Numbered from the stretch's first letter, positions 16,981 to 39,369 are shown. The stretch is 64,000 bases of DNA from a virus (IMGVR_UViG_3300023174_000037); one strand, 5' to 3'. Made by a program: numbers and translations. Notes: generated by a model not told the origin, from the letters alone.

Positions 16981-17052
16981 TTATACAGGGCTGTAGGGGT
17001 TCTTTGTAGTGTCATAACCATCGTCCTCTGGGTATACTGGATAAGGGTTCAT
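16981..17052 (-). CDS. 23 aa micro-ORF MNPYPVYPEDDGYDTTKNPYSPV
   Basis: ATG overlaps the TGA of the deaminase gene; hand-translated. Confidence 0.6.
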   Translation of the reverse strand: MNPYPVYPEDDGYDTTKNPYSPV

Positions 17053-17681
17053 TTTCCATCCACGTGTAATTGACTGCCTTTGTTGAAGCTGGGGCTAAAT
17101 GGACTCTGTGCCACACGCCCACCTTTGCTTTGACTCCATGCATAACCAGCACGATGACCTGAACAGTCTTTGGTGCAGGTTGATCCTAAGAAACTGAGTT
17201 CGTTTAGATCATCTTTTAAAAATGTATCAGCAAAGGCTTTGCATAATTTTTCAATTTTGGGATTGCGAGTAATTTCTATGTGATACTGTTTACGTATGCG
17301 TTCCTGGCTAGGATCTTGATAGCCGGCATAAACTTTATGAACACCAACATCGTCAACAAGATCACTACAGTTAATGCCCGCACGTTCGTCCATGTCCTGA
17401 GTGCATGGGCTACAAGTTGTGATAATAATGCTACCAGCAGGAATCTCGCCAAAGCGGGCATAGTAACTGTCTATGGCTGCACGTTCACCGTGAACACGCT
17501 TGCCATCTTTGGTAGGATAATTGATGCCTACTACACAATTGTTATCAGGATCTAACACTGCGGCTGCTACCATACCTAGGTCTTGATCTTTTTGTTGGCC
17601 TTGAATGACCATTTCGCAAAGACGCACTAGAATTTGATCTAGCTTGTTGTGATTGCTAATTTGAAAATCTGATATCTTCAT
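17049..17681 (-). CDS. cytidine/deoxycytidylate deaminase-fold protein with a C-terminal Cys module
   Basis: HGERAAI (HxE) and CSPC (CxxC) zinc motifs; tail CTKDCSGH after LNE. Confidence 0.8.
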   Translation of the reverse strand: MKISDFQISNHNKLDQILVRLCEMVIQGQQKDQDLGMVAAAVLDPDNNCVVGINYPTKDGKRVHGERAAIDSYYARFGEIPAGSIIITTCSPCTQDMDERAGINCSDLVDDVGVHKVYAGYQDPSQERIRKQYHIEITRNPKIEKLCKAFADTFLKDDLNELSFLGSTCTKDCSGHRAGYAWSQSKGGRVAQSPFSPSFNKGSQLHVDGK

Positions 17682-20600
17682 TAGGCACCAAGAATTTGTC
17701 GAACTTGATTGACATAAGCACTGACATCACTGGTGCCAATTTCATCTACGTCACCCACATTGTAGGCCACTTCCTCTGCGGCCTGCATGACCTTGTCGGG
17801 ACCAAACTTCATCAACAGGTCTGTGTGTGCAACCATGATACGATTTAAGATAGCACGTTCAACTGCTTCACTGGCAGTGCTGGATTCTTCTCTAACAGGA
17901 TCTTTTAGCTTGCCGTAACGTGCTTCTAAATCTTTAAGAGCTTGTTTAATAATTTGTTTGTTGGCTGGATTAGAATCAACTGCCATCATACGGAATAACT
18001 TGTCGCGTTGATCCAAATACTCTTTGCGTGTAGTGGGTTCTTTCATCAAGCCTTCCGCCACACCTTGGTCTTTGTGTTTCTTAACGTCATTGGCAAATTG
18101 TTTTTTGGTTGCCTTTATGATTCCTGCAAAACGTTTGTCACCACGCTCAAAGTTGCCTGCTTTGTCGGCAGCACCAGCATCAAGTGCTGCGGCCTGTTTG
18201 TATTGACTTAATTTTTCATTGCTTAATTCATTTACAGTAGGGTTAGCACCGGTCAAGCTCACAGTCCACTTCTTACCGCTTGTAGCAGATTTCTTTTCTG
18301 CCCAACGACGCATGCCGTTTAGGTAAGCACGTTCTTCGGCACTGTCGGCGTAGCCTTTGCCTGGCACAACTTTCCAAACTTTACCGTTGATGGCAATGGC
18401 AATGTTGTTTCGCTCGTGACCTAGTTCGTGTTGCAGTTCTTTGCGTTTGAACTCACGACGCTCGTGATCACCTAGGCCTTCGCCCATTTCCATGTCCTTA
18501 CGATCTTTAGCACGTTTACGAGCATAGTCAGTCTGTGGATTCTTGGGTACGGGTTTAACCGGACGGCCAGCATCTACGTCACGCTCGCGTTGACGACGTT
18601 TTTGATAATCTGTCTGTGCTTCCGCCATACCTTTTGGTTTTTTGTGATGCTTCTTCATGTTGATAGCAATGGCCGCCTGCTGTGCTGGATTGGCAGCTTC
18701 GTCCAGTTGATCATCTGAGAAAGCCATAAAGTCATATGGTCCCCAGGGTTGGCCTGTGCGACCGTCATTGCCATCTAGATCACCATGCTCATAGTAGTCG
18801 TCACTGTAGATTTCTACACCGTCAAAGTCACTATTGTAATCAATATGTAGTTTACGTGTGACACCGTCGGGACAAACAATGCCACGATTCAGCAGGCGCT
18901 CTACGTCTTCTTTGCTCTTGATTCCTTTTTGCAAACTGCCAGTGTTGAATGTGCCATTGTACCAAGCACTGGCTAAAGCCTGGAAGTAATTGCCTGAGCC
19001 ACTTCCACCTGCAGGGGCAAATTCTTTTAAAGAGTTGCTTTTTGCTTTGGCAGCCGCTTCACGCTTCTTGCGGAAGATCTCACGGAAGTAATCATCATCT
19101 TCTTCCGGGCTGTAAGGATATGGATTGTGGTCACTACTGGGTCGTTTACGAGGTATATCTCCAGGACGGTCGTAATCAATGCCCGGCAAATCTTCCGGTC
19201 TAGCTTCTTCAACTTTGCCGGCGTTACGAGCTTTCCATGCAGTGGCATAGGCAATAGCTTTATCTTTGTCACTTAACCGGCCGTCTTTGCTCAAACTCTT
19301 TTTAATATGCTTGACCATACGTTCAGCTTTGGCACCAGGAGGAGCCACTTCTGTTACACCTTTGGCCTTGGCTTCTCGATCCAAATCTAGTCTACGTTGT
19401 AGGACAGCCGCTTGGTCAACATCTTTGTTCATTGACAAATCTTGTAAGGCTTTGCGTTTGGCCGCATAATCACCTTGAGGATCCTTTGAATTTAGTGCTG
19501 TTTCGGCTACCCGGTGGTTTATGCTCTCACCACCACCGTCTCCGCCGCCGTCACCTGATTCGCCGCCTCCATAATATGCATAGCCAGGAAAGAAATAACC
19601 TCCCATTGCTTTTGAAGATTTTTTCTTTTTCTTTTTCTTGCCTTCTGCTACACCTTCATCATACCAATCATTTTCTTCCTCTTGGTCAGCGTAATCATTA
19701 TAAGCAACATCACTTAGGTGCATACTGTGTTTGCCGTGATTGTATAAGTCCACAATAACAAATGAGCCACTTGGACTGAAATCATATATCTCACCAGTCT
19801 TGCCTTCAAACTCATTGGGTGCTATTACCACAACTGGATCGCCACGTTGTAGGCGTTGGCCTTCGTTTATAGCTTCTGCTGCTCGTTTTAAACTCTGAAC
19901 AGGCGGTTGTGTTTCTGCATCGTTGTCTGGAAATAAGTCAACCACATTACCACCTCTCATGCTAGCGGGTGCTGGATTATTGTTAATACCTTGAACTTGT
20001 CTTGGTTGTGACAAACTCCGAGCCATTTGACTCATCGCATTGGATTTTGATTTAAATTGTTGCACAGGCTCAGCTGGTTCAGCTTTGGCTGCAGGTTGGG
20101 CTTGGGGTTCTGCATCTGCAGGAGCATTTGGAATTAAATTAATTGCTCGAGATTGCGATCTATCAGTAGTATCAGTGCCGTCGGACTGACCTTGTCCGCT
20201 CATTTGGCCAATGGTCTGTGCTAGTTTTGCATTGGTTTGTTCTACATTTGCTAGTTGTTGTTCCAGACGGTCGTTTTCATTATCTAAACTGCCAATTTCT
20301 TTGCCTTGTTTTCGATCCAGAGCCACTAGCTGTTGTAGCAGTCGATCTTGTTCGGTGTTGGCACCTTTGATAGCCGACAATTGTTGTTGGCTTCGCTCGT
20401 TGGAATCTATTTCACTTTTGGCCACAGCTTCCACATCGCTTCGCGCCGCAGGATATTGAGCACGAAGTTTTTGTAACTCTCTAGCAACTTTAACATCGCC
20501 AGCGGCTACATCCGAATTGGAGTTAAACTTTTTTTTTTCTTGTAGTGGCAGTTCGCCCTGGGTAGGAATGCCTGGAAGTTCGGGCTGGACTGCACTATGC

Positions 20601-21376
20601 CAACCTAATCGTTTCAAAGTGGTCACGACTTCATCTGCGCTGGGCAATACACGATAGATAAAATGATTTTTCATTTGATCATTTTCTAAGCCATCGTAAT
20701 AGTCGCTGATCAAGTCAAGGCCTTTTTTATCTAAATGAATGTTGTCTTTGGGGTTAGGAAATTCTAATGTAACACTAGGAATATTACCCATGTTGGCTTT
20801 AAGTAATCGTTGGAAGTTGCCTACACCAAATGCTCTAGGCGACTGTGGGTAATCTCCATATGGGCTTTTTTCTTCACGAAATGCTTCTGGTGGGTTTTCT
20901 TTGAGCATACGCTCAACTTGTGCAACATAAGCACTGACATCACTTGAACCAATTTCGTCAACATCGCCCACATAGTCGGCCACATTGTCAATGGCTGCAC
21001 CTACCAGTTCAGGACCGTATTGTTTTAATAAATCGTGACGTTGCATCAAAATACGACGAGTGATTGCGCTGGCCACTGGACTGTCGTGTTGCTCATCCAA
21101 CTTGCCTTTAGTTGTGCCCAGACTTCCTGTAGGGTCCATACCGGTGGCAGGATTAATTTTAAAGTAGCTGTCACGTTCGGCTTTGATCTTTTGAAATTGT
21201 TTCTTAAGTCCAGCCAATGCCGCAGGATTCTTTTTGTAAGCAGGTTCTTTGGCACTATCTAACAGTTCTAACATTCGCATGTTTAGGTCATCAATGCGGC
21301 GAGCTTCAAGGTTGTCTACTGCACCTTCTTTGAGTTCTCGTTCATATTTTGTGTTGAATAGGTCTAATGCAAACAT
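17681..21376 (-). CDS. 1231 aa modular putative internal head polyprotein
   Basis: String of short unrelated modules, many starting right after [VLIM]xE; one domain is duplicated at both ends. Confidence 0.75.
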   Translation of the reverse strand: MFALDLFNTKYERELKEGAVDNLEARRIDDLNMRMLELLDSAKEPAYKKNPAALAGLKKQFQKIKAERDSYFKINPATGMDPTGSLGTTKGKLDEQHDSPVASAITRRILMQRHDLLKQYGPELVGAAIDNVADYVGDVDEIGSSDVSAYVAQVERMLKENPPEAFREEKSPYGDYPQSPRAFGVGNFQRLLKANMGNIPSVTLEFPNPKDNIHLDKKGLDLISDYYDGLENDQMKNHFIYRVLPSADEVVTTLKRLGWHSAVQPELPGIPTQGELPLQEKKKFNSNSDVAAGDVKVARELQKLRAQYPAARSDVEAVAKSEIDSNERSQQQLSAIKGANTEQDRLLQQLVALDRKQGKEIGSLDNENDRLEQQLANVEQTNAKLAQTIGQMSGQGQSDGTDTTDRSQSRAINLIPNAPADAEPQAQPAAKAEPAEPVQQFKSKSNAMSQMARSLSQPRQVQGINNNPAPASMRGGNVVDLFPDNDAETQPPVQSLKRAAEAINEGQRLQRGDPVVVIAPNEFEGKTGEIYDFSPSGSFVIVDLYNHGKHSMHLSDVAYNDYADQEEENDWYDEGVAEGKKKKKKKSSKAMGGYFFPGYAYYGGGESGDGGGDGGGESINHRVAETALNSKDPQGDYAAKRKALQDLSMNKDVDQAAVLQRRLDLDREAKAKGVTEVAPPGAKAERMVKHIKKSLSKDGRLSDKDKAIAYATAWKARNAGKVEEARPEDLPGIDYDRPGDIPRKRPSSDHNPYPYSPEEDDDYFREIFRKKREAAAKAKSNSLKEFAPAGGSGSGNYFQALASAWYNGTFNTGSLQKGIKSKEDVERLLNRGIVCPDGVTRKLHIDYNSDFDGVEIYSDDYYEHGDLDGNDGRTGQPWGPYDFMAFSDDQLDEAANPAQQAAIAINMKKHHKKPKGMAEAQTDYQKRRQRERDVDAGRPVKPVPKNPQTDYARKRAKDRKDMEMGEGLGDHERREFKRKELQHELGHERNNIAIAINGKVWKVVPGKGYADSAEERAYLNGMRRWAEKKSATSGKKWTVSLTGANPTVNELSNEKLSQYKQAAALDAGAADKAGNFERGDKRFAGIIKATKKQFANDVKKHKDQGVAEGLMKEPTTRKEYLDQRDKLFRMMAVDSNPANKQIIKQALKDLEARYGKLKDPVREESSTASEAVERAILNRIMVAHTDLLMKFGPDKVMQAAEEVAYNVGDVDEIGTSDVSAYVNQVRQILGA

Positions 21377-21386
21377 TTATTTTTCC

Positions 21387-22082
21387 TTATGCTTCGTCAA
21401 TGTAATCTGCTGAGTCGTTGATCTTGCGACGACGTGCCGCGAACATTTCCAAGGCCATCTCAGCCTCATCTAAATTTTTAAAACGTGTGGGCAATCGACG
21501 ATTGCCGTGGCGGATTTCAAAGCCAGTTTTTTCGTTGCCGTGAACTTCAAACATGCCACATTCGTTGGTAATGACTTTAACTGCAGCTGATTCTTTCATA
21601 CTGACACCTTCTTCACCTGGTGGCTGTTGGGCAGGAACAACACCACTCAAGGCCGAGTCTAGTTCGCCTTCGGTTTCTTTGACTTTTTGTTGTTTGGCAA
21701 CAAGAGCACGGTCCACTGTGCTTTTTTCTTTTATATCAGTGTCTTCGTGCTTTTTGTCTTTGAGATCTGAATCTTGGCGAATTTCGTCAGTGACCGTTTT
21801 TAAATAGTCAGCAAATGAAGATTTAACTCGATCCAAAACATCTTCACTGGTAATGGCTTCCTCCAACGGCTCTTCGTCATTTTCGACACTTTCTTCGGCA
21901 CCACCGACTAGTTTGCCAGCCATGGGATTTTTAGGATCTGTTTTGGCTGTGAGCACTGCTACAGTTTTGGGTTTGAATGTAGGGCCAAGTTGGTTTACAC
22001 TTCGTTGATTCGTGTTTAATCCTTCTTCGATAACACGAAGACGTTCAACAATGGTGTATATACTGTTATGGTCGTGTGCCAT
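21387..22082 (-). CDS. hypothetical protein (possible head core/scaffold-like)
   Basis: 231 aa, Glu-rich, within the polyprotein cluster. Confidence 0.7.
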   Translation of the reverse strand: MAHDHNSIYTIVERLRVIEEGLNTNQRSVNQLGPTFKPKTVAVLTAKTDPKNPMAGKLVGGAEESVENDEEPLEEAITSEDVLDRVKSSFADYLKTVTDEIRQDSDLKDKKHEDTDIKEKSTVDRALVAKQQKVKETEGELDSALSGVVPAQQPPGEEGVSMKESAAVKVITNECGMFEVHGNEKTGFEIRHGNRRLPTRFKNLDEAEMALEMFAARRRKINDSADYIDEA

Positions 22083-22085
22083 AGA

Positions 22086-22526
22086 TCATGCCCTTGCGTC
22101 CTTCAAATAACTCTTTAACTGCCACATGTATTTGCCATGACTGCTTTGGCGTTCTGCGGCAAAGTTTGCAACATCTTCACGACCTTCGGCACTGGCAGCA
22201 TCAAATACTTGCTTGCTCATGTCGACCATGGTCTGTGTATCTGCGAGTAATTCTTGTAACATTAATCGGGCACGAGGAACCTTGATCTGGTCCTGTATTT
22301 GTGATAATTCTTGGAAACGATTTAGGCTTCCTGGGGCATATTCTTCTGTGGTACGGATGTATTCAGCAATGGGATCCACAGCTGAATAAGCGTCTTCGTA
22401 GATTTTTTGGAAAAACTTGTGTAATTGACCAAAGTCTGGACCCTCCACGTTCCAGTGAAACATGTGGGCCTTTAAGTAATAGGCAAATGTTGAGGCCAAG
22501 TAAGTTTTTAACAAATCTGCTAGCAT
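22086..22526 (-). CDS. dps: Dps/ferritin-like DNA protection protein
   Basis: HMFHWNVEGPDFGQLHKFF, DPIAEYIR ferroxidase pattern, WQL. Confidence 0.92.
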   Translation of the reverse strand: MLADLLKTYLASTFAYYLKAHMFHWNVEGPDFGQLHKFFQKIYEDAYSAVDPIAEYIRTTEEYAPGSLNRFQELSQIQDQIKVPRARLMLQELLADTQTMVDMSKQVFDAASAEGREDVANFAAERQSSHGKYMWQLKSYLKDARA

Positions 22527-22732
22527 TATTTCTTCCGTTTATACTTTTTATACTCTGCAGGCGTGTTGGGCGTTGCATCGTCAGTAGTGTATTTAGCGCC
22601 AGAAAAGAAAGAACCACCATTTCTTGATAATGTAGTGCCTAACGGCATACTAACTGTGGCTATGCTGCCGCTGGTAGTGCTGGCCGTACTGGCGCCATCT
22701 TCTTGTAAGTTAACAAATTCATGCAATCTCAT
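22526..22732 (-). CDS. small hypothetical protein with CTS-like N-terminus
   Basis: MRLHEFVNLQE followed by a Ser/Thr/Gly-rich segment and a basic tail. Confidence 0.7.
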   Translation of the reverse strand: MRLHEFVNLQEDGASTASTTSGSIATVSMPLGTTLSRNGGSFFSGAKYTTDDATPNTPAEYKKYKRKK

Positions 22733-23028
22733 TGGTATGGGGCCTCGTCAATAATTGTTAGAACATTATTTTTTATAGTTCCAGGACCAAAATCCACACG
22801 CATATCTGTTACAGTTAGCCAGGCCAAGTGCGGCAAAACCAATTCATGACGTATTGTGTATTCACCAGGTTCGGCTTCAATTTGTAACAGTTCTTCAAGA
22901 TAATGCTCGGTCCAGCGCCAGGTGCGTTCAGCAAATAATTCATCGTTGACATAGGTACGATAAATGGGTTGAAAACTTTCCCATTCGCAATCAATATTAC
23001 ACAGCACCCGTATGAATTGTTTGGACAT
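22729..23028 (-). CDS. hypothetical protein
   Basis: 99 aa; TAAATA lies 4 nt before the ATG. Confidence 0.75.
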   Translation of the reverse strand: MSKQFIRVLCNIDCEWESFQPIYRTYVNDELFAERTWRWTEHYLEELLQIEAEPGEYTIRHELVLPHLAWLTVTDMRVDFGPGTIKNNVLTIIDEAPYQ

Positions 23029-23046
23029 GCTGTATTTAGTAGCGTT

Positions 23047-23235
23047 TTATTTGACTTCTTTTACACTGCCAACATGCCATTCTTCTACACCGTATTGTGC
23101 CCGCATTAACCTACGTGCTTCTGTGGCATTGGCGGCGGTTACAGTGACATCAATCCAGCCCACATAGTTGGGTTGTTGTATCCGGACCTGTGCAGTCCAT
23201 AATTTATACTTGGGGTATATGTCTCGGGCTTTCAT
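23047..23235 (-). CDS. small hypothetical protein
   Basis: MKARDIYPK start overlaps the stop of the upstream gene (ATGA). Confidence 0.7.
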   Translation of the reverse strand: MKARDIYPKYKLWTAQVRIQQPNYVGWIDVTVTAANATEARRLMRAQYGVEEWHVGSVKEVK

Positions 23236-25256
23236 CGTCCAGTCCATTTAGCTATCATACTAACACGGTTACTGCTATAAATGCCAGTGCCACGTCGTGT
23301 GCTACGCATACTACGTCGACCGGGCTCTACAGGAAATGTGTATCGAGTCCATGTGGCATTTTGATCTACAATTTGATCACCGCGTTTCTGGCGATAATCT
23401 TCAGTGGGCTCCATTGCATAACCCTTGACTTCTACACCCGGAATTGAATTTAACATGAGCCACATGGCTTGTCCAAATTTGGTCTGTGTTTCTCCGGTTT
23501 CAAGCGTGAGTTTAAGGATCGTGAGAGCAATACCATACAATGCTTTGCCCAGCCCGCGCCCACGATAATCAGGATCATTGGCCACAGTTTCTACACGCCA
23601 GGTTTTAAGCGGATCAAGGGTGGCACTAAGATCAAGTTCTGCGACCAATGTATCTCCATCAAAGATCATGATTTCCAAAAACTCAGGATCTTTTCGGTTC
23701 ACCGCATAAGAGAATTGACTACCACCTGGCAAGGGTTTAGTTTTGGGCTTTTTTGCCATGGGCATCAGTGTGTCCTTATCACCAAAGTCGCCTTGTGGTA
23801 TGCGGGCTATTTCATCTAACTCTGTTTCCCATACACGTTTACTACCGCGATTCTTATTCCAAAAATGTTTTCCGGCATCAGTCTGCTCGTGACTGCGTTT
23901 TACTTGATAGCCAAGATCTTTGGCATAATCATACATGACAGCCGCAATACCTTGTCCACGATATGCTTCATCAACTAATAAATCCCGTGCTATTAACGTT
24001 TTGCCCGCAACATCAAATACTACTCGTGCTAGATTACGGCCATGTGTATCTGCATCAATTGTTAATTCATTTCCATATTTGTGTGCTGTTAAATCAAGTC
24101 CATCTCTATATGCTTGTTTAACTGCAGGTTCGGCATCTTCAATGATGCCAGTGCTACGACGTAAGCGTAAATCAAAGTCTACATCAGAAATATAGTTACG
24201 AATAAACTTTTCATAATACTGTTGTGCAAGAGCCGGAGTATCAGCTTCAAAACGATCTACTATCTGTGAGCCGCCAGCAGGACGATCAGCGTGATAAATT
24301 TCATAGCCTTTGTTCAAGCGTTCTCTAGCTTGACTCATACGGTCCATTCTGTTACTGACTTGACGGTCAGCACGACTCAAATAACTTTGTAATCGTTCAT
24401 CGCTGATTTCATTGACATCTTGTTTACGAACTGGCTTCCAATGGAATACTGTCATGCCCATGCTGGGATATTCTTCATGCGCCCACTTTGGTCCTAAAAT
24501 GTTCTGCACCACTGGTACAAAGTATTTGCGATACAGGTTGGCGCGGTTGTCACCTTTGGCAGTAAATGATACGCCAGGCGGGCGAGTCTTGGCAATGTAT
24601 TCAGGCAATTGTTGTTTGATCACGTTGAGCACTGTGCTCAATATTCGAACAGTTGACTTACTAGCACTTGTAGGCTGACTTGGAGCATCATAGTCGCTGT
24701 TTACAGTAAATGTAATGTGTAAGGTACCGTTAAATTCGCTGCGATCAAAGAACACATCCACCCAATGTCCATCCACAGTAGAGTGAAACAAACTGCGTTT
24801 TCTTTTGCGGTTGGGTTTGTAGTCAGCTGGTGCGTTGCCTAATTCTGTAAGTTGTTGAACCGGCGCCCAGGCCTGTATATCTGATCTATTCAACAGGTTG
24901 GCGGCGGCCCAAGCTCTGTGATTGCCATCTATGATCCAACCTTTGGAGTCTACCACAATAGGTCTACGATCCACAAAGTTTGCACTATATTCACCCGCAT
25001 GGTCAGGGTCTACAGTTTGCACTCGATTGTATGGATCTTGTTCGGGCTCTTGTTCTTCGTCATCGTACTCTTGATCAGGTATGTGCAAACTGTTTAATGC
25101 AACACGTCGTAGTTCATACTGCGGATAGCGCAGGATCAATTTTTTTAAAAATCCACCACCCTGTTGGTCTTTGGGGTGTATGCCATCTACATAATTCCAC
25201 ACCTGTTCAGCTGACACAACTTTGGCAGATTCAATGACAAATTCACGGGCTTTCAT
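23232..25256 (-). CDS. 674 aa modular protein: ParB/Srx-like domain plus two GNAT acetyltransferase domains
   Basis: PIVVD...IIDGNHR (ParB); YRGQGIA and YRGRGLG (GNAT motif A); N-terminus MKAREFVIE. Confidence 0.8.
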   Translation of the reverse strand: MKAREFVIESAKVVSAEQVWNYVDGIHPKDQQGGGFLKKLILRYPQYELRRVALNSLHIPDQEYDDEEQEPEQDPYNRVQTVDPDHAGEYSANFVDRRPIVVDSKGWIIDGNHRAWAAANLLNRSDIQAWAPVQQLTELGNAPADYKPNRKRKRSLFHSTVDGHWVDVFFDRSEFNGTLHITFTVNSDYDAPSQPTSASKSTVRILSTVLNVIKQQLPEYIAKTRPPGVSFTAKGDNRANLYRKYFVPVVQNILGPKWAHEEYPSMGMTVFHWKPVRKQDVNEISDERLQSYLSRADRQVSNRMDRMSQARERLNKGYEIYHADRPAGGSQIVDRFEADTPALAQQYYEKFIRNYISDVDFDLRLRRSTGIIEDAEPAVKQAYRDGLDLTAHKYGNELTIDADTHGRNLARVVFDVAGKTLIARDLLVDEAYRGQGIAAVMYDYAKDLGYQVKRSHEQTDAGKHFWNKNRGSKRVWETELDEIARIPQGDFGDKDTLMPMAKKPKTKPLPGGSQFSYAVNRKDPEFLEIMIFDGDTLVAELDLSATLDPLKTWRVETVANDPDYRGRGLGKALYGIALTILKLTLETGETQTKFGQAMWLMLNSIPGVEVKGYAMEPTEDYRQKRGDQIVDQNATWTRYTFPVEPGRRSMRSTRRGTGIYSSNRVSMIAKWTGR

Positions 25257-26134
25257 CGCATAGCCACCTGATAAGATTTAAATTGGTCCTGTCGTGACTG
25301 TAGACCTTTTGATGCAGGATTGATTTTTTTAGTAACCGCATTAGTATTACTAAAGTCTTTGATTTTTGGAGCAACACGATTTTGCCAATACCATACAGCT
25401 ACCTTGGCGGCAACGTCGGGTCTAGCCGCCAGGTCTGGCTGTTGTGCTAGAGGTAGTCCTAGCGCGGCACCAGCACGAGTGTAATTGTCACGGCCGGTTA
25501 ATTGTATATAACCACGTCCTTTGTAGCGTTCGCCGTCGCCTTTGACTTTGTTGCCTAAGATCTTGGCCTTGCGTGGATTTTGTTCATATTTTTTAGTAAA
25601 GTAAGCTGGGCTACCACGTTCTTCCATGCTGGCAAAGTTTGCACTCTCATGAGCACATTGCGCCAAGAACTGTGCCAGTTCTGTGCCTTGGATGCCACTG
25701 GCCATGGCAACAGATCGTAATTGATTAACTGGACCTGCTTGTTGTGCAGGAGCTTGCACTTGTGCAACAGGCGCCTTTGCTTGTGGAGTTGGTGCGGTCA
25801 TTTTTGCATTGGCTGCGCTGCCACCCAAGGCCATTGCTCCGGCTAAGGCGGCACCACCTAACGCACTCTTCCAACCTTCTTCTAAGTCTTCTAGTTCTTC
25901 AGCTGGCCAACTAATAAAACTGTTACCGTTAACATCGCCAGCGCGAACAACAAATGCGCCGCCGTTGTCATAACCTTCGTCTTGACCAATCTCCCAGCCC
26001 ATTGCAGACAGAGCACGTTCAGCACGTGGATCTTCGTCACCTTGCCACCACTGTGCGGCTAACCGGTGTAGTATTTCTTCTTCATTGGGCTCTCTATCGT
26101 CACCACCTGCGGATGCAAATTCATACAGTCTCAT
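25253..26134 (-). CDS. modular protein with C-terminal GH19 (chitinase class I/lysozyme-like) domain
   Basis: QFLAQCAHES, YKGRGYIQLTGRDNY, VAVWYW, VTKKIN. Confidence 0.9.
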   Translation of the reverse strand: MRLYEFASAGGDDREPNEEEILHRLAAQWWQGDEDPRAERALSAMGWEIGQDEGYDNGGAFVVRAGDVNGNSFISWPAEELEDLEEGWKSALGGAALAGAMALGGSAANAKMTAPTPQAKAPVAQVQAPAQQAGPVNQLRSVAMASGIQGTELAQFLAQCAHESANFASMEERGSPAYFTKKYEQNPRKAKILGNKVKGDGERYKGRGYIQLTGRDNYTRAGAALGLPLAQQPDLAARPDVAAKVAVWYWQNRVAPKIKDFSNTNAVTKKINPASKGLQSRQDQFKSYQVAMR

Positions 26135-27109
26135 TTAGCAATTCCAACGACGACGTGCCTTGCAAATAGCTTTGTCTGGAGTCTTGGCACATGAAATATT
26201 GTGCATCTTCATTTGTCCACGACTGCGTGAGCAATAACTCTTTCTACGCTTTGACGCTTTGCTACCTTTTTTCAACTTTGAAGGCTTGGTAGTCACTGCT
26301 GTTTGTAGTTTGCTACCAGGATGCTCGCGGCGATATGTTTTAACTGCTTTACGACTCATACCGTCTGTCTTGTCTCGATTGTTGGCTTTTTGCCAGGCTT
26401 CGGATTCCATTAATGGGTCAGAGGTCACAGCAAACACATACAGTTCATCTTCTGTGAGACTTTCTAAATCCGCCCAAACTGCTTCTGCATCAACACCATT
26501 GTGTTCAGCAATGGTTTCAATGATACTCTCAATAAGATCAAATTCTTCATGCAGTTCAGCCCTGGCTTCCATACTTAGGCCTGTGCCCAGTTCAAGAATT
26601 CTGCTGAGTTCATCCATGTTCATCTCCTTGTCTTCATTTTTTACACAGTTTGGCACACGTTTACCAAACAGTTCTTTCATGCCTTCTTTGTGATAGCCTT
26701 TCCAGCAGGCTTCATCTAGATTTTGATTGTGCTCGTGTGTTTCACACATGCCACAGTCTTCACAGACCATTTCCATTTCAACACTTTCATTGTGTTTCTT
26801 TTTGCCTGCACAATGCGCCCGTTGGCTAAAACCTTTGGGATGGCTACAGTTAATACTGCTTTTGTATTTCTGACTCCACTTTTCATCCAGTTGATCTACA
26901 CTCTCACTTTTGTTGCCATAATTGGCCGCGCCTTTTTTACGGCATTGTACCAAGCGTCCTGACGCATAGGCACTGGGCCAAACTTTTGCTGAAGCCTTGA
27001 CCTTGTAATAGCAAGCATCTTTCTTTTCGGCAAGTATTAAATCTGTAAATGCAGGACCGCCGCATTCTGGGCAGGTTTGATGAGATTCAAATAAGTCAGT
27101 TATAATCAT
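26135..27109 (-). CDS. 324 aa modular protein of basic Cys-containing mini-domains
   Basis: CPECGG, CEDCGMC, CWKGY...PNCV and other modules, each following FE, LAE, LDE or LME. Confidence 0.75.
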   Translation of the reverse strand: MIITDLFESHQTCPECGGPAFTDLILAEKKDACYYKVKASAKVWPSAYASGRLVQCRKKGAANYGNKSESVDQLDEKWSQKYKSSINCSHPKGFSQRAHCAGKKKHNESVEMEMVCEDCGMCETHEHNQNLDEACWKGYHKEGMKELFGKRVPNCVKNEDKEMNMDELSRILELGTGLSMEARAELHEEFDLIESIIETIAEHNGVDAEAVWADLESLTEDELYVFAVTSDPLMESEAWQKANNRDKTDGMSRKAVKTYRREHPGSKLQTAVTTKPSKLKKGSKASKRRKSYCSRSRGQMKMHNISCAKTPDKAICKARRRWNC

Positions 27110-27366
27110 TTTTTCTTAGTGGCCACGTTGATGGCCGCTCCTTTTCTATTGGCGTTAGGATCCTGCCTGCGTTTACGAGCTGCCGCTGATGCACGACCTT
27201 TTTTGCCCAGGGCATGTGCTTTGGCCTGTGGCAAACATTTGGGCTTGCCTTCTTTTTCAGATCCACGGGCACAGTCACCACGAATCTTGCCATCGGGCCC
27301 AAAACGTACCCATTTTTCTTTGAACCAGTCACGTAGATTTTCAGTTACAAACTCACTGGCTCTCAT
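27106..27366 (-). CDS. small basic protein with CTS-like N-terminus
   Basis: MRASEFVTE-NLRDWFKEKW...; very Lys/Arg-rich. Confidence 0.8.
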   Translation of the reverse strand: MRASEFVTENLRDWFKEKWVRFGPDGKIRGDCARGSEKEGKPKCLPQAKAHALGKKGRASAAARKRRQDPNANRKGAAINVATKKK

Positions 27367-30300
27367 TTTTTCTTTCCTCTACGCATATTTATTTGCCAAC
27401 GTGCCAGCTGGCCTTTACGACCCGGTGCTTTTGCAGCCTTTTCTAATTGAGCCATAGTGGCACCTTTGGGTATGCCGTGACGCTGACTGTCTCCAGGACG
27501 TCCTGGACCTTTACCGTCAGCAAAGTTTTCCGCCACACCCGACGCTTGTTTTGTCAGCGTATAAGTTGCGCCACCTGGCATATCACTTCTTTCCAAATCG
27601 TAACCGCTGCCGCTGATGTAGCGTCGAAGCATTCTATCATACAGTCTAGCTCTACTGCCGGTAGGGTCATCCTCTTTTTCTGCACTGAAATTCAACCGCG
27701 CTGGTTTACGCTTGGCGATGAATTGTTGCATGGCAGCGAGCACAGTGGCAAACACTCGTGACGCATCACCTTCACCGGTGATCTCCATGTTTTCGTCACG
27801 CTCAAACTCCACCATCCAACTGTTGTCGCCTTGAGCCATGAACAGCACAATTAGTTCACTGCCGTCATCCAAGTCAGCAGTGGCATGCCAGTCACCATTT
27901 TGTTTGCGCCATTCAACGGCATAAGGTTGATCAAAGGCTTCGTTTATTGTCTCGGTCGGAGTCCATTCAAAACTAGAAACTGGCACTGAATATTTGTCAC
28001 TGAGTTTTTGTAGCAGTGCATCTAGCGTGGCAACAGGAATATTTTTAGCAACTACACGTTGGCCACGACTGCCTGGAACTGGACGATAGTATACATCAAC
28101 ATGTTCAGGATCAATGATGCGTGATTCTGCTACAGCAAATTGATTGCCCAATTGTTTTGCTAAACTTTTTTGTCTATTGATATTGGCCGGAGTGCCTGTA
28201 CCACTTTGTTTGTGATCAAACACACCATACAGTTTGATCACAGTAGGGTCACGACCATCGACACTGTAGAACAAACTGAGATCTCTGGTTAAATGCACAT
28301 GGCGCAACTTTGGCACTTTGGCCAAAGGACCAGCTGCAACAAACGGTGTGTCTTTGCCCCAAGGACGACCAGGGTTGTCGGTTTTAAATGCTAAAAATTC
28401 CTGTATCTTTGCTGGCAAGTTGGGCAGTTGGTTAGACTTGTCAGCTACTGTTTGATCAAACATACTGCTCTTTCTAATTTCAACATTATTGCCAGACTCT
28501 GACAGCATCCATGCACCTTGATCTATTTCCAGCAACAGGTTGACCAAGGCAGGATCAATACTTTCGATCATGACCGGTACTACTTCAATCTGTGTCATGT
28601 CCGCATCAGCAGGTCCATTTTGTTGCAACCATAAAGAGGCTATTCTGTTAGCATCGGCTTGACTGTTGCCTACGCCACGGAATCTATACAGTTCTTGCCC
28701 GGTATCAGTATCCAAGATTCGCCACTGTCCACTAAAACTGTTGCCTGGTGGTGCCGAACTGGCCTGATTTGTGGCGCCAAACAAGTCTCTGAATGAATAA
28801 TCAATGTTGCGGCCATCGGTTCTGTCCTGCGGGAAGTTCTGTTCTATATCCAAGGGCACTTCGGGAATGGATCCAGTTAATCTAGCCTGTAAGTCTGCGC
28901 TGTCTTGGGCGTTGTCCACAGCCTGGTTAGCATCTGCAGCCTTGGTCATTGTTGGAGCTGAGTCAGTGGTTTTGGGTCTCACGTCAAACAGATCAGGTTG
29001 TTCAGCGCCTACGCTCTTTAACCAATTTTTGCCATCTGTTTTCGCATCAGCAGCAGTGTCGCTTAAGAAGGTATGAACCACATGTCCGGTTTCTTTTTCG
29101 TACACTTCCCAATAAGGAACACCACGTTCGTTTGTGTCCTGTTTGGGTTTTTGTTGTTTAGGGTCTGTAATACGCTTGGCCAACTTGGCACGTGGTGTCA
29201 GTGTTTTAGGATCCACATACGGACGCACATTGAATCCTATGTTTTGATTAAGATACTTGTCAAATACTTTGTCAGCGGCAGCACCTTTGTTTGCAGCTTG
29301 AACTATTTCAAGTGTTGCACCAGTTTTAACATCATACACTTCCCACTGTTGATTGTCACTCATGTTGACCAATTGGTATTCACCCGAGTCCAAGGCTTCA
29401 CGACCGTATTTCATCCATACTCTATTTTTAACTTCGTCTTCTTGGAAGCCACGATATTCAGCACCTGGTACTGCGGTCCAGACGCCGTTGACCTTTTGAT
29501 ACAACTTGAAATACTGATTTATTTTCTTTTCATTACCTAGAGTTTTTTCGGCCCAGAGTTTCTTGAGTTGTTCTTTGTCTAGTTCACCTGCGGCATACTG
29601 ACTAAACAAGGCCAGTTGACTGTCGCCTTCGGGGGCAATTAATTTGTATAATTTTTTAGCATACTCTCTACGATCTGTGCTGGCGCTGGCAGCAATTTGC
29701 ATGGCACGGGCATAACGCAACATGGTACTTTGTAATTTTTCAGGATCAGCTGATTCTTCAGCCAACCAATCGCCTCCGGCACTGCGGAATTCTATGTAGC
29801 CATCTTGTATGTGAGCACTGGTATACTTGCCTTGTCCTACACCCTTTTGAATTTCTCGTTGTGCTAATTCAAGCAAGCCATGTTGCATCAACTTCAAAGC
29901 ACCGGCTGGATCTGCACGACCTGATTTGAGATTTTCACGGAAGCTCTTCATTGCTGACTTGGTGTAAGTGTTGGCTTCGCGGCCAAATTGTTGTAGAACA
30001 TATTCGTCACCTAGGAACAGAATAAGTTTTAGGTAGTCAACATCACCACCTTTGTATGGAACACTAACGCCCATGTGTAGGCCAGTTGAATCGTTAGTGT
30101 AAGCATTGCCTTCTGTGCTGTTGGCCCAGTCTGTGACTTGTTGTAATTTTTCCAAGGCCACTAGTAATGGCATTGGAGGACTTACTATTTCCAAACCGTA
30201 GTCTTCACGATCATCTGGACTCAAACTTGAATCTGGCTCTACAATCCATTGGCCTTCTTTACGTGTGGTACTGTGATAATTTGAACTTACTTTGACTGGC

Positions 30301-33300
30301 ATGTCTACAACACCTTGTAAACTGTTTCCAATATCATCCCAATCACGTGACCCATCATTGCCGCCGCCACCGGTCATGTAGGGCCAGTCTAAACCGTACT
30401 CACTGGCCACATCACTCATGTAGCGTAGGCCCGCATCATCAAAGAAACCAGAGTCGTCATCTATCTGATAATTGTCGCGGAAATCATCCAGTGCGGCATC
30501 CCAGTTTGCACCTTCTTTTCTTACTTCGTCGGCTACTAGATCATCCAATAGGCCTTCGGCTTCGCTTTGTGCATCTAGGTATTTTTCATACAGGGGATTT
30601 TCTTTTGCGTAGGCTTGCTGTTCGCTTGATCGGGTAAATTTAGGAGCAGTTTCTCCAGCTTTGATAATTTCATTTATTTCTTCATCTGACAAGTCCAACA
30701 AGGCCAACTGTTTTTGTATCTCGTCGTCCTCATCCCAATCACCTTCGTCAACCAGCACTTTACGAATCAAATCTTCGGCTTCGTCTCTAAATTCTCGAGT
30801 CATTTGTTCGTCGTACCACTCGTAATAGGCTTCATCCAACTGTTCTTGTAGTCGTGCTTCTTGCCTAGAACTTAGTCCACCATATTCGCCGTTGTTAAAG
30901 AAGTCTATAATCTGACTGATACTGCGAACACGTTCGTCGGCATCATAGTCGGGTTCCATTTCGTAATCACTGTCACCATTGTTGGTGGTGTCACGGAAGA
31001 TCAACTCAGCTTCAAATCCGGCACGTATACCTTCGGCTTCTGGACTAGTGGCCCATTTCATCAGGGCCGACGGTGACATTTTAACTTCGTCCAACTGTTC
31101 ACTTTCGGCCAAGGCAAACAGTTTCTTTTCTGCTACCTGCTTGTTGAACATTGTATAACTACGCAAGAATTCTTTTTCTTGTCGTGTAAGTTCGCGGCCT
31201 TGTTGGACTTTGGCCACTAAAAATTTATAATAGTCTGCTTTGTCACGATTCTTGGATACCGGTGCTTGAATATTTTCTTTAAACTGCGCCAGCTCTAATG
31301 CTAATTTTTCAAACAGGCCATTGGCCTTGGCAATCTGCGGAACGCCTTGCTTGTTTGTTTTGAGATTTAATTTGTTGGCTTCTTTGCCAATTTGTCCCGG
31401 CTTGATGTCCACTGTGAGTGCCATACTATAACGTGGATCCTTGGCCTGTTTCTTTGTGGGAATATAACCCGATGCACCTTCGTTGGTTGGCCCAGACGGC
31501 TTTTGCTGATTTTGTTTTTGTAGTTGATATAGCCGACTTTGATTTTGTGCGTTGACTTCACCGCGCTGAGCACGAATAAAATTGTTTAGTTCTTGAGCAA
31601 CGTCAGCTTGTATTACTGTGCTATTGTATTGTTTGGCATTGTAAAGAACACGAGCCGCATCCATTGGCCGCATGCCTTGTTGAGTAGCACAACCACTGAG
31701 ACTGCCTCCGCCGATGATGCAGGCACTTAATGCGGCCACAGCCGATCCTTTAAGGCCTTCATCAACATCTTCTTCGTGTAGGTTGTTGGCTTGTTTCTTT
31801 GTGGAAATGTAACTTGATGCTGATTCAGTGACAGAAAGTCCATGTTTTTGAATGAACTCTTGCATTTTGTTTTCAATCCATTGATCTTCTTGACCAGCCA
31901 TTCTTATTTTATATAGATTTTTGTCATTGTATTCATAGCGACTTTGGTCTTGAAAGTATTTGGAGATTTGTTCAAATGCAGCAAAAAGCTCTGGAGTCTT
32001 GGTATACTTTGATCGTTGATAGTTGGAATATTTAGAAATTTTAGTTTGTGCCCATTTTGCCCGCAGATCTTTTTCTGGAACTTGATAGTCGCTAGCTATT
32101 TTTTCTACTTCTTTTTTTATTGTTTCTGGAGTAACATCCAAGTTTCTGTCAACTCGATAGGTTATGATCTGTATTAATTTTTTGTAGGCATCTTCTAGTC
32201 CAGATTTGGGCCTGGACATAACCGCAGGATTCTTAACAGTTGAACCAGTGACGGATATGGCTCGTTTGACTTGGTTGACCAACTGATCATAAGTGTAGGT
32301 CCGCGGGGCCACACTGCGATAAATCAGTTGATCACCTTGGTACACATAAAAATATTCACCTTTGACCACTACCTTGTAGCCCAATATACCATAGGCTTTT
32401 TCAATTTCTTCTTTTAAGTTTTCTGCTTGACCCACCGCAAAGTATTCTGGATGTAGTCTAGCATAGTCACGCATCAACACACCAGCTCTGGCATTGGCTT
32501 CGTTTTCATACGGACTGCCAGTTTCGCCAGCATCAGTAGGAACCGACTCACGTTCATGTTGATGACGATGTGTAAGTTCGTGTGCCACTGTTCTGAGCAC
32601 ATCCATAATATGGCGATGTCCCCAGGCCACTTCTAATAGATTATGATCGTCGATGTAACGACCAAATGTTTTGTTTCTTACTGACCATTGTGGATCTTTA
32701 CGCAACTTGACCATCGGCATGCTTTTGAGTTTTAATTCTTTAAAACAAAAATCAATAAAGTCCGTTAGTATTTCTTCATCAGACAGTGTCGCAGGTGCCG
32801 CTTCAAGAGAAACTGTGTCAGCTTCGACCACTGTGGGGGTGCGGAATCCGTATGTTACTCTGGGTTTGGTTGTTTTTTCTGCTAAACTAAATTCTCGATC
32901 CTTGGCAGCATTTCTAGCATCATACAGGTCTTTAATTAGTCCTTGACTACGCAATATTTTGAATGCTAAATTTTCTGGACCAAACTCGCCATGTGCTTCT
33001 AATCCAGTTTGGCGCATCCGTTTAATTTTTTCTGCCAGACTAGTCATGCGTTTTAAACTGCCGCTCTTGATAGCTGACTCAATTTGGCGGCCAACTTTTT
33101 CAAACTTGTTGCGTGTGCTGGTGTCGTTGACTACGCTCTTGACTCTACGTGGAACCTGTATCCAGTCGTTGTTCAACAAGGAATATATGCCCTGACTGAT
33201 GTGCGGCTTGTCAGCATCTTGCACATACAATTCCACATCAGCACCACCAATCTTAATATCGTGTTGTTCGTTATACTGAAACTTTTTGGCATCAAACAGT

Positions 33301-33581
33301 TCACGGTAAACAGGGTTATCTGGCATGTCTACTACCAAGTGCAAATCAATATCGCTGTTGGGAGTATATGTGTAAGCCGCATTTGATCCGCTGATAGTAA
33401 TGTCTTGAATTGCTAGATCTGTTACGCCTAAAAACTCACGAAAATCGTCGGCTATTTCCAGCAGGCGTTCACGCACTTCAGGCCGCAAATGTTCACGATC
33501 GTCCCACAGGCGTGGATTTAATTGATCATTAAATTTAACAGCGTCTTCAAGATTATAAGAGTCTAATTCCGTGATGTTCAT
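27363..33581 (-). CDS. 2072 aa multidomain polyprotein (pol-beta NTase, zincin, amidoligase, RelE/YafQ-like and others)
   Basis: SGSN...SDIDLH; HELTH...YENEA; GFEAE, EPDSSL, LEIVSP, STGLH, IEFRS; RHVHLTRDLSLFY. Confidence 0.85.
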   Translation of the reverse strand: MNITELDSYNLEDAVKFNDQLNPRLWDDREHLRPEVRERLLEIADDFREFLGVTDLAIQDITISGSNAAYTYTPNSDIDLHLVVDMPDNPVYRELFDAKKFQYNEQHDIKIGGADVELYVQDADKPHISQGIYSLLNNDWIQVPRRVKSVVNDTSTRNKFEKVGRQIESAIKSGSLKRMTSLAEKIKRMRQTGLEAHGEFGPENLAFKILRSQGLIKDLYDARNAAKDREFSLAEKTTKPRVTYGFRTPTVVEADTVSLEAAPATLSDEEILTDFIDFCFKELKLKSMPMVKLRKDPQWSVRNKTFGRYIDDHNLLEVAWGHRHIMDVLRTVAHELTHRHQHERESVPTDAGETGSPYENEANARAGVLMRDYARLHPEYFAVGQAENLKEEIEKAYGILGYKVVVKGEYFYVYQGDQLIYRSVAPRTYTYDQLVNQVKRAISVTGSTVKNPAVMSRPKSGLEDAYKKLIQIITYRVDRNLDVTPETIKKEVEKIASDYQVPEKDLRAKWAQTKISKYSNYQRSKYTKTPELFAAFEQISKYFQDQSRYEYNDKNLYKIRMAGQEDQWIENKMQEFIQKHGLSVTESASSYISTKKQANNLHEEDVDEGLKGSAVAALSACIIGGGSLSGCATQQGMRPMDAARVLYNAKQYNSTVIQADVAQELNNFIRAQRGEVNAQNQSRLYQLQKQNQQKPSGPTNEGASGYIPTKKQAKDPRYSMALTVDIKPGQIGKEANKLNLKTNKQGVPQIAKANGLFEKLALELAQFKENIQAPVSKNRDKADYYKFLVAKVQQGRELTRQEKEFLRSYTMFNKQVAEKKLFALAESEQLDEVKMSPSALMKWATSPEAEGIRAGFEAELIFRDTTNNGDSDYEMEPDYDADERVRSISQIIDFFNNGEYGGLSSRQEARLQEQLDEAYYEWYDEQMTREFRDEAEDLIRKVLVDEGDWDEDDEIQKQLALLDLSDEEINEIIKAGETAPKFTRSSEQQAYAKENPLYEKYLDAQSEAEGLLDDLVADEVRKEGANWDAALDDFRDNYQIDDDSGFFDDAGLRYMSDVASEYGLDWPYMTGGGGNDGSRDWDDIGNSLQGVVDMPVKVSSNYHSTTRKEGQWIVEPDSSLSPDDREDYGLEIVSPPMPLLVALEKLQQVTDWANSTEGNAYTNDSTGLHMGVSVPYKGGDVDYLKLILFLGDEYVLQQFGREANTYTKSAMKSFRENLKSGRADPAGALKLMQHGLLELAQREIQKGVGQGKYTSAHIQDGYIEFRSAGGDWLAEESADPEKLQSTMLRYARAMQIAASASTDRREYAKKLYKLIAPEGDSQLALFSQYAAGELDKEQLKKLWAEKTLGNEKKINQYFKLYQKVNGVWTAVPGAEYRGFQEDEVKNRVWMKYGREALDSGEYQLVNMSDNQQWEVYDVKTGATLEIVQAANKGAAADKVFDKYLNQNIGFNVRPYVDPKTLTPRAKLAKRITDPKQQKPKQDTNERGVPYWEVYEKETGHVVHTFLSDTAADAKTDGKNWLKSVGAEQPDLFDVRPKTTDSAPTMTKAADANQAVDNAQDSADLQARLTGSIPEVPLDIEQNFPQDRTDGRNIDYSFRDLFGATNQASSAPPGNSFSGQWRILDTDTGQELYRFRGVGNSQADANRIASLWLQQNGPADADMTQIEVVPVMIESIDPALVNLLLEIDQGAWMLSESGNNVEIRKSSMFDQTVADKSNQLPNLPAKIQEFLAFKTDNPGRPWGKDTPFVAAGPLAKVPKLRHVHLTRDLSLFYSVDGRDPTVIKLYGVFDHKQSGTGTPANINRQKSLAKQLGNQFAVAESRIIDPEHVDVYYRPVPGSRGQRVVAKNIPVATLDALLQKLSDKYSVPVSSFEWTPTETINEAFDQPYAVEWRKQNGDWHATADLDDGSELIVLFMAQGDNSWMVEFERDENMEITGEGDASRVFATVLAAMQQFIAKRKPARLNFSAEKEDDPTGSRARLYDRMLRRYISGSGYDLERSDMPGGATYTLTKQASGVAENFADGKGPGRPGDSQRHGIPKGATMAQLEKAAKAPGRKGQLARWQINMRRGKKK

Positions 33582-33587
33582 AGATAG

Positions 33588-33593
33588 TATTTA
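33588..33593 (-). promoter_or_regulatory. TAAATA late-promoter-like core heading the polyprotein cluster
   Basis: TAAATA-6 nt-ATG immediately downstream of a terminator. Confidence 0.6.
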
Positions 33594-33600
33594 CCGGATA

Positions 33601-33628
33601 AACAAAAGCCGCTAACTTAGCGGCTTGT
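33601..33628 (-). terminator. intrinsic terminator
   Basis: Perfect inverted repeat AAGCCGCTAA-C-TTAGCGGCTT followed by TTTTGTTT on the minus strand. Confidence 0.85.
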
Positions 33629-33648
33629 GTAGATTAAACAAAATAGAT

Positions 33649-39356: not shown

Positions 39357-39369
39357 TCGATATGGGTAT

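Follow-up and report, generated by a model that had tools for sequence, protein, structure and literature searches.

What is a single phage gene doing with a nucleotidyltransferase (NTase), a zinc metallopeptidase, an amidoligase and a lipoprotein export signal in one reading frame? The question is raised by a 2072-residue open reading frame (ORF), labelled P0001, at positions 27363-33581 of the minus strand of a 64,000-nucleotide stretch of viral DNA (IMGVR_UViG_3300023174_000037). We refer to this whole stretch as the window. P0001 is one uninterrupted frame from ATG to stop. We propose, with a probability of roughly 0.6, that it is a polyvalent cargo polyprotein, which would be packaged in the phage head and processed there by a protease into separately acting parts. 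From this point on, G001, G002 and G003 denote related contigs of 315-337 kb, other labels beginning with P0 denote homologous or neighbour-type proteins, and an arrow within a sequence marks a predicted cut. All features of P0001 and of the operon that it heads lie on the minus strand.

The window is phage DNA, and its gene content points to a T4-related freshwater jumbo phage as the source. Its genes lie nearly all on one strand. They include structural and lysis genes and a family B DNA polymerase gene of T4 type, whose product shares 47-50% identity with the polymerases of the jumbo phages Phosso and Atu_ph07. P0001 has 1127 homologues of the full-length type (1200-2200 residues), on contigs of up to 345 kb from freshwater jumbo phages, and its N-terminal part is common to 5324 clusters at 50% identity. 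Lake metagenomes from at least five studies contain the DNA of P0001 again, as does one metatranscriptome. These homologues and this recurrence in lakes imply that P0001 is not an assembly artefact. The metatranscriptome contigs, all from one lake, match parts of 27272-34486 (P0001 and its upstream neighbour) with 0-2 mismatches, a match for which DNA carry-over is a possible source. A megablast search of the P0001 gene against 50,697 phage records returned no match, and hence no similar DNA in cultured phages. Cultured phages do carry single modules as stand-alone homologues. The NTase occurs in T4-like cyanophages, in Cr30 and in Maribacter and Lak phages; S-SRM01 and B3 have the zincin, Atu_ph07 and RsoM2USA the amidoligase, and Vibrio phages DUF6934. 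No published description of an NTase-zincin-amidoligase family was found in the literature.

Comparison of P0001 with 120 homologues separates constant from variable parts. Residues 1-390, 720-1480 and 2000-2072 are constant, whereas residues 400-700 and 1640-2000 are variable, being common to only 5-40 of the 120. At the first variable site (VR1), which extends from the end of the zincin to the sequence SASGYIPTKKQ, relatives carry 0, 1, 2 or 3 cassettes, each ending in xxE. At the second (VR2), the cassettes differ among orthologues and again each ends in xxE. Cassettes of VR1 include at least five kinds of signal-peptide/lipobox module, a sigma-70 region 4 and a PARP-like module with the motif YLWHGSR. 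Pfam searches of 131 variable segments recover ART-PolyVal (PF18760; E 1.6e-17, in three family members), GNAT, dCMP-type deaminase, SLT, GH19, LysM, NUDIX, NT5C, ParB_N, ASCH, GGACT, sigma70_r4, DUF6886, DUF5661 and Tat signal domains. The same units differ between lakes. Relative to the window, lake contigs have lost or replaced residues 383-700, 384-610 or 1576-2017, all of which are whole cassettes, and 309 nucleotides of other sequence stand in place of residues 384-610. Such whole-cassette differences between lakes imply that exchange is ongoing. As judged from these alignments, P0001 is a constant scaffold, composed of the NTase, the zincin, a helical module, the amidoligase, a set of repeats and the tail, with exchangeable cassettes at two sites; its modules are autonomous units shuffled between phages at linkers that always end in Glu. 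A preliminary description of the window had read P0001 as a polyprotein and had reasoned that an invariant architecture among orthologues would speak against this; the 0-3 cassettes at VR1 and the differing cassettes at VR2 are the opposite of an invariant architecture. The polyprotein reading is thereby supported in part: the varying architecture, the junction Glu and the export signals behind the sites (below) favour it indirectly, and cleavage of the chain itself stays a prediction.

The junctions of the family end in an invariant Glu. With the starts of the constant core, the amidoligase and the tail as anchors, P1 is Glu in all 390 junctions (135/135, 115/115 and 140/140, respectively). 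P3 is Leu, Val, Ile or Met at 64% of core starts, 100% of amidoligase starts and 97% of tail starts, P2 is free, and the tail junction keeps the xxE form whichever cassette precedes it. The main junctions fall in model segments with a predicted local distance difference test (pLDDT) score below 50, and the linkers at residues 243-260, 585-607 and 695-705 are disordered. The prohead protease of phage T4, gp21, and its giant-phage relatives cleave after Glu at a short motif (PMC9026906, PMC5694885). By its sequence, the P0001 junction motif, mostly [LVI]-x-E, is of this T4 gp21 type. Of five related contigs, four encode exactly one gp21-type protease (PF03420, 87-95 bits), and the two contigs with a completeness of 90% or more are among these four. 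In the case of G002, a complete genome of 337 kb, the scaffold-like protein encoded beside the protease has 24 [LIVM]xE sites in 366 residues, or 6.6 per 100 residues, five times the genome mean of 1.32. In the G002 capsid protein, four of these sites crowd into the N-terminal 45 residues, and the other 350 or so residues hold one. One head-protein site of G002, LRE↓NASSGS, is similar to family junctions such as VRE↓NASGYIPT.

A second line of evidence comes from export signals found in the interior of these proteins. In the whole family, 49 of 56 unique internal signal-like hydrophobic segments have xxE 1-11 residues upstream, mostly 3-5. The segments have a basic n-region and an h-region, followed by an AxA site or a lipobox, and two carry Tat motifs of the RRxFLK type, one of them (P0183) ahead of a GH19 domain. 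To illustrate, the GH19 muramidase gene of the window (25253-26134) begins with an 86-residue N-terminal module, behind which stands LEE↓GWKSALGG...ANA, a Sec-type signal, and the 86-residue module is also an internal cassette of the polyprotein P0030 (59% identity). In P0001 itself, an n-region, an h-region and an LSGC lipobox occupy residues 609-634, away from the N-terminus of the ORF, so that the protein as translated is no lipoprotein precursor; it would become one only after a cut at VDE↓G. Sec, lipobox and Tat signals work only near an N-terminus, and of the indirect arguments for a cut at the xxE sites, the position of the signals behind them is therefore the strongest. A precedent is gp47 of phage SPN3US, a processed ejection protein with a transmembrane helix at the start of its mature form (PMC5694885).

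The neighbourhood of the gene adds a third line. A terminator-like hairpin (33606..33626) lies directly upstream of P0001, and from 33581 to 17049 there is no intergenic gap of 20 nucleotides or more, so P0001 leads an operon-like block of 16.5 kb. The downstream genes of this block (17049..27366), most with N-termini resembling T4 targeting sequences, encode an 86-residue basic protein, a DUF6321 protein, the GH19 muramidase with its internal signal peptide, a deaminase, a ParB-like protein with two GNAT domains, a Dps-like protein and a 1231-residue protein. A start of the form M-x3-[DE]-[FL] is found in 8 of 12 operon products, compared with 0 of 62 other products of the window (p = 3e-8), and the same clustering of N-termini recurs in G002 (p = 4e-7). 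The operon starts are MKAREFVIE↓S, MRASEFVTE↓N, MRLHEF, MRLYEF, MIITDLFE↓S and, for P0001, MNITEL; the T4 internal proteins (IPs) IPII and IPIII start MKTYQEFIAE, T4 Alt starts MELITELFDE, and the N-terminal consensus of the NTase-headed family is M[ND]I.EL[DE]S.

Several modules that are separate genes in this operon also occur inside NTase-headed polyproteins. Nine such proteins from other phages contain the deaminase, five contain GH19 and five GNAT/ParB, and the DUF6321 module is embedded likewise. When the two forms are aligned, the embedded copy has [LIV]xE where the separate gene has Met and a targeting-like peptide, as in MIITDLFE↓SHQTCPECGG compared with KQAVAE↓TQESCPECGG. With their cut sites thus aligned, separate and embedded forms predict nearly the same mature N-terminus. 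On the evidence of these alignments, fusion and fission are equivalent for these modules.

The mechanism that we propose runs as follows. The precursor would enter the prohead by way of an Alt-like N-terminus, the conserved tail, or both. A gp21-type prohead protease would then cut P0001 after the junction Glu residues into roughly a dozen fragments; the predicted sites are E5, E235/253, E391, E586, E608, E702, E826/832, E1574, E1673/1695, E1819, E1881 and E2018. The fragments would leave the head along with the DNA, and each would act on its own in the newly infected host. Those with a newly exposed Sec, Tat or lipoprotein N-terminus would be exported to the envelope by host machinery. We put forward only tentatively the fuller version of this last step, in which fragments ejected unfolded through the tail into the host cytoplasm, their signals unmasked, would supply the envelope with muramidases and lipoproteins only minutes after infection and with no gene expression.

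Several points weigh against processing in the head. P3 is Gln or Thr at about a third of core-start junctions, and a tblastn search of the 64-kb window with the protease loci of the relatives found no prohead protease. Homology breakpoints lie within four residues of [LIVM]xE in 35% of cases against 14% under the null, an enrichment of only about 2.5-fold, and the junction and homologue counts are not independent events, the homologues being related. Because the breakpoint enrichment is modest and the counts lack independence, we prefer to rely on the anchored junctions. Disordered regions commonly hold Glu-rich linkers. The P0001 start MNITE↓L resembles MELITE↓L of T4 Alt, yet the first residues of P0001 also align with a stand-alone NTase from a phage outside the T4-like group, starting at residue 23 of that NTase. 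The N-terminus may thus belong to the fold instead of serving as a targeting peptide. For every family member, both cleavage and virion location are read from sequence, and exported muramidases or lipoproteins have no clear known role when an infection begins.

The alternative that survives best, although we judge it unlikely, assigns the cuts to the embedded zincin, acting in cis or in trans, whether in the producing cell, inside the head or once injected. In favour of such self-processing, zincins have been described as the most frequent hub domain of polyvalent proteins and as their probable processing enzymes (PMC5512222). Almost every full-length member of the family retains the zincin, with HExxH+E intact and with a confident fold; so far as the model goes, this domain could equally be the processing enzyme, and cytoplasmic processing would explain the export signals of GH19 without ejection. 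Its structural relatives Wss1, IrrE and the minigluzincins are not, to our knowledge, Glu-specific, which counts against it. T4-type prohead proteases are known to be specific for Glu at P1 with an aliphatic P3 (PMC9026906, PMC5694885), a motif that fills the scaffold and the capsid propeptide of a relative, and operon genes without a zincin have these sites as well.

It is very unlikely, in our view, that P0001 is an uncut giant protein in which the Glu linkers are recombination joints and flexible acidic spacers and the hydrophobic segment is a membrane anchor. Polyvalent proteins that are moved intact do exist, namely the virion RNA polymerase of phage N4 and the plasmid protein ArdC/TraC1; a duplicated junction remnant in P0001 (below) shows that the linkers act as recombination sites; and cleavage is so far a prediction from sequence. 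An invariant P1 Glu beside a free P2 is, however, hard to obtain from recombination alone, and lipobox, AxA and Tat motifs that depend on an N-terminus nevertheless stand behind the sites in those 49 of 56 segments. In an uncut chain, an ATP-dependent amidoligase downstream of an export signal would make no topological sense, and a common mature N-terminus is predicted by stand-alone and embedded copies. We give just as little credence to a processed polyprotein that acts in the producing cell, as a late expression strategy whose products would include metabolic enzymes and exported proteins that lyse the cell or modify its envelope. In its favour, GH19/SLT muramidases and lipoproteins that are exported typically serve lysis or superinfection exclusion in the producing cell, the cytidylyltransferase-like gene beside the NTase here, in S-CRM01 and in Cr30 is a metabolic hint, and the contigs of one lake metatranscriptome match the gene. 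Against it, T4-type prohead proteases are active only in assembled proheads (PMC9026906), so that their substrates end in the head, and the Alt/IP-like N-termini and the ART-PolyVal, GNAT, sigma region 4 and deaminase cassettes match known injected effectors.

The preliminary description had placed a pol-beta NTase at about 32900-33560 and an HExxH+E zincin at about 32400-32800, and both coordinates are right. It had further listed a lipobox module, an amidoligase, WxVx[DE]xxTG repeats, a GNAT-like domain and a basic tail, all of which are recovered here, the repeats with one unit more than the three that the motif reveals.

The N-terminal motif MNITE↓L (residues 1-5, 33567..33581) fits M-x3-[DE]-[FL], with I-T-E as a possible first protease site. 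Residues 6-235 (32877..33566) comprise, by sequence and fold, a pol-beta-fold NTase with a helical C-terminal subdomain that ends at the conserved junction LSLxE. Across 128 sequences, G65-S66, D77-x-D79 (DID) and a third carboxylate, E117 (DVELY), are invariant or nearly so. PHROG 36119 matches with an E-value of 2e-42, and Pfam NTP_transf_2 scores 19.5 bits, just below its 21-bit cut-off. The AlphaFold model of the domain has pLDDT above 90, and its fold resembles, with modest scores, MNT (2rff, Z 7.6), the AadA/ANT aminoglycoside NTases, FAM46 and the CD-NTases (CdnD/E). With G[SG], DxD, a third carboxylate and a predicted alpha/beta core, residues 6-235 have what defines the pol-beta NTase superfamily. 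The fold matches do not single out one NTase subfamily. The preliminary description had guessed that the NTase may NMPylate host targets or act on signalling nucleotides, and that the zincin may cleave host regulators.

A cytidylyltransferase-like gene (34593-35366) adjoins the NTase here, and cytidylyltransferase-like genes also neighbour the stand-alone NTases of S-CRM01 and Cr30 (TagD; loci L043, 1192-2049, and L044, 1311-1712). This conserved neighbourhood hints, from gene order, at a metabolic link. The product of S-CRM01 g124, which adjoins the stand-alone NTase, was considered as a zincin and is not one.

A disordered linker (residues 236-264, 32790..32876; pLDDT below 50 at 243-260) with the sites VVE↓A and SLE↓A leads to a gluzincin-type metallopeptidase domain (residues 265-385, 32427..32789), assigned by motif and predicted fold. 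Its motifs are HELTH and, downstream, the Glu of ENEANARAG. The model reaches pLDDT 95-98, and a structure comparison pairs it with Wss1 (Z 8.8), with IrrE (Z 8.1) and with selecase of the minigluzincins (Z 7.9). An HExxH helix and a Glu ligand on a modelled zincin fold place residues 265-385 among the gluzincins, with catalysis predicted.

VR1 of P0001 begins with a variable cassette, designated X (residues 392-586, 31824..32408), that is found in about 12 of 120 homologues and ends VTE↓S. It is followed by a duplicated junction remnant, SASSYISTKKQANNLHEEDVDE↓ (residues 587-608, 31758..31823; pLDDT below 50 at 585-607), a linker recombination scar in which P0001 retains the degenerate duplicate SASSYISTKKQANN-LHEEDVDE. 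Such a duplicate implies recombination within linkers. Next comes the lipoprotein-signal cassette (residues 609-702, 31476..31757), recognised by sequence motif: GLK, a hydrophobic run, the LSGC lipobox and a helical body of 70 residues, with the end TNE↓G. The start of this cassette is also a population breakpoint in the lake contigs.

Homologue coverage and the model delimit a constant, mostly helical module beginning GASGYIPTKKQAKDPRY (residues 703-832, 31086..31475) and ending LAE↓S..LDE↓V. Behind it lies an Amidoligase_2 domain, a glutamine-synthetase-like COOH-NH2 ligase (residues 833-1345, 29547..31085), with an acidic helical insert of about 200 residues at approximately 870-1075. Pfam Amidoligase_2 (PF12224) scores 28.4 bits against a cut-off of 22 bits, the motifs GFEAE, TGLHMG and EFRS are invariant in 109 sequences, and folds annotated as 'Amidoligase enzyme' in AFDB match with a probability of 1.0. 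A Pfam score above gathering and the GxExE, H and ExR motifs, in agreement with the model, make residues 833-1345 a predicted member of Amidoligase_2.

Four small beta-beta-alpha repeats (W.V.D..TG...; residues 1346-1673, 28563..29546), defined by motif and model, follow with disordered linkers between them. Repeat number varies among lake populations, and contigs of two runs skip residues 1476-1558. The linkers between repeats (28563-29546, and those of homologues) read (P)DVAQNF, which is the tail junction VAENF with Gln for Glu. As their sequence suggests, they may be copies of the junction that cannot be cut.

VR2 holds two cassettes in P0001. The first (residues 1674-1819, 28125..28562), bounded by MIE↓S, LSE↓S and VAE↓S, consists of a short leader and a candidate RelE/YafQ-like module, listed as a YafQ-like domain in the preliminary description, for which there are weak leads. 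Pfam at E-values up to 5 gives no match for this module, and hhalign against E. coli YafQ gives a probability of 2.7% over only 20 columns (R..H...D..L.Y), which is not significant. Its model is alpha-alpha-beta-beta-beta with a pLDDT of only about 55, and a language-model atlas search returned weak leads (0.90-0.91). The second (residues 1820-2018, 27528..28124) combines a small alpha/beta unit with a GNAT-fold DUF6934 domain and ends VAE↓N. Residues 1885-2016 match GNAT folds with Z 8-9 over about 105-115 residues, in a tie with the non-catalytic antizyme and a subdomain of RNase E, and also match Pfam DUF6934 weakly. For cassette X, the lipobox module, residues 705-833, the repeats and the tail, Pfam at E-values up to 5 gives nothing credible, and phmmer searches of three P0001 segments against PDB sequences gave nothing useful. 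When whole models were used for the fold searches, matches to a single domain took up each list.

P0001 ends in a constant basic tail, NFADGKGPGRPGDSQRHGIPKGAT...RKGQLARWQINMRRGKKK (residues 2019-2072, 27366..27527), which is always preceded by xxE and is nearly invariant in most of the 120 homologues, with 115 copies in a wider set. From its composition and conservation, the tail may bind DNA or act as a second targeting element. Compared with the neighbouring 86-residue basic protein it gives an E-value of 0.19, and a variant tail gives no match to the DUF6321 protein; homology of the tail to its small basic neighbours is therefore not shown.

Upstream of the gene, the exact T4 late promoter TATAAATA occurs three times in the window, compared with 3.1 expected, and in no case before P0001, and a scan of the window for sigma-70-type promoters stays at chance level. 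The sequence GGTAAATAC lies 6-14 nucleotides before the P0001 ATG (33582-33605). Relatives have ATAAATAC in this place, which shows up in their predicted proteins as FVYPINT[FI]M, a spurious extension of the N-terminus. The element resembles the T4 late promoter core TATAAATA, and the interval 33582-33605 has no evident Shine-Dalgarno sequence.

Other features of the operon and its surroundings are given here for completeness. The 674-residue ParB-like/GNAT protein (23232-25256) has a second type of conserved C-terminus, (M/I)A(K/T)WTG(R/K/A)-COOH, in common with several polyproteins from other phages, P0142, P0168 and P0181; from its sequence, this ending may be another sorting or targeting tag. 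A Gly- and aromatic-rich motif, GGY(F/W)(F/A)PG(Y/F)A..GG...GDGGGGES..E, occurs at residues ~590-625 of the 1231-residue neighbour (17681-21376) and in linkers of P0179, P0180, P0195 and P0198, polyproteins from other phages in which it directly follows the NTase. The Dps/ferritin-like protein (22086-22526; Pfam Ferritin, E 2e-21) lies inside the operon, and has the same place in G002. Just upstream of the operon, 37021-40155 holds a gene for a 758-residue AAA+ ATP-dependent protease-like protein (PHROG 4871, E 4e-233) and a J-domain-like gene, and both keep this position in G002. A homologue of ribosomal protein bS21 (59-63 bits) is encoded by G001, G002 and G003 (315-337 kb), not next to their head genes. 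With bS21 of the relatives thus away from the head genes, we do not equate the P0001 lineage with the published bS21 phages.

How does a head-packaged polyprotein compare with known systems? The polyvalent proteins of phages and conjugative elements were defined by Iyer, Burroughs, Anand, de Souza and Aravind in 2017 (PMC5512222). Like them, P0001 has domains of disparate chemistry in one polypeptide (NTase, zincin, amidoligase and a GNAT-fold domain in one jumbo-phage ORF), and delivery with the DNA is predicted for both. The hub domains of polyvalent proteins are present as well, as a zincin fold here and as ART-PolyVal in the three family members, and the ART-PolyVal, GNAT, ParB-like, NUDIX and peptidoglycan hydrolase domains of relatives of P0001 are likewise found in polyvalent proteins. 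P0001, by contrast, is headed by a pol-beta NTase at residue 1 rather than the firmicute ArdC-linked NTase (PMC5512222), it has a constant amidoligase core and a constant basic tail, and its family has regular [LVI]xE junctions, with Sec, Tat and lipoprotein signals behind them, in place of a reliance on the zincin.

Resemblance to IPI-III and Alt of T4 is of another kind. Both systems have N-termini of the form M-x3-E-[FL]...E↓ and place diverse enzymes behind a shared N-terminus at a hypervariable locus, and a gp21-family protease is encoded in T4 and in the relatives of P0001. T4 packages separate small proteins, whereas P0001 strings up to about a dozen modules into one 230-kDa precursor whose packaging is predicted. 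We know of no export signals in the T4 internal proteins, unlike those of the P0001 family. T4 Alt is a large injected enzyme that is trimmed at both ends, and targeting sequences have been described (PMC9026906; targeting also PMC5694885). In phiKZ, 201phi2-1 and SPN3US, a gp21-related protease cleaves many head proteins behind the Glu of a short motif. The ejection proteins of these phages differ in an S/A/G-x-E motif, in long propeptides, in the absence of strings of unrelated enzymes and in belonging to another phage lineage. The polyproteins of eukaryotic RNA viruses, finally, are single ORFs whose products are cut at conserved short motifs into independent enzymes, and they make use of internal signal peptides during or after processing, as we propose for P0001. 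Unlike them, P0001 comes from a DNA phage with ordinary operons, its module content varies between close relatives, and its cutter is probably a capsid maturation protease in trans. What appears to be new is the NTase-zincin-amidoligase scaffold with junctions of the prohead-protease type and a constant tail, as well as the interchange with separate genes that have targeting-like N-termini and the signals that cleavage would unmask.

If this reading is true, a very large and abundant group of freshwater jumbo phages, with thousands of clusters at 50% identity, builds its injected arsenal as a cassette polyprotein, and the head protease serves as a general 'unpacking' enzyme. Fusion and fission would then be neutral, because the mature products are the same, which would explain the free fusion and swapping of unrelated enzymes. 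The [LVI]xE junctions would provide a simple rule for parsing hundreds of effector modules, and a route by which virion-delivered proteins reach the periplasm would be suggested. Whether polyvalent proteins are processed, and by what, becomes directly testable. The family is, moreover, a natural library of candidate modules for anti-defence and host takeover, among them ADP-ribosyltransferases, deaminases, NTases, amidoligases and sigma-region-4 decoys.

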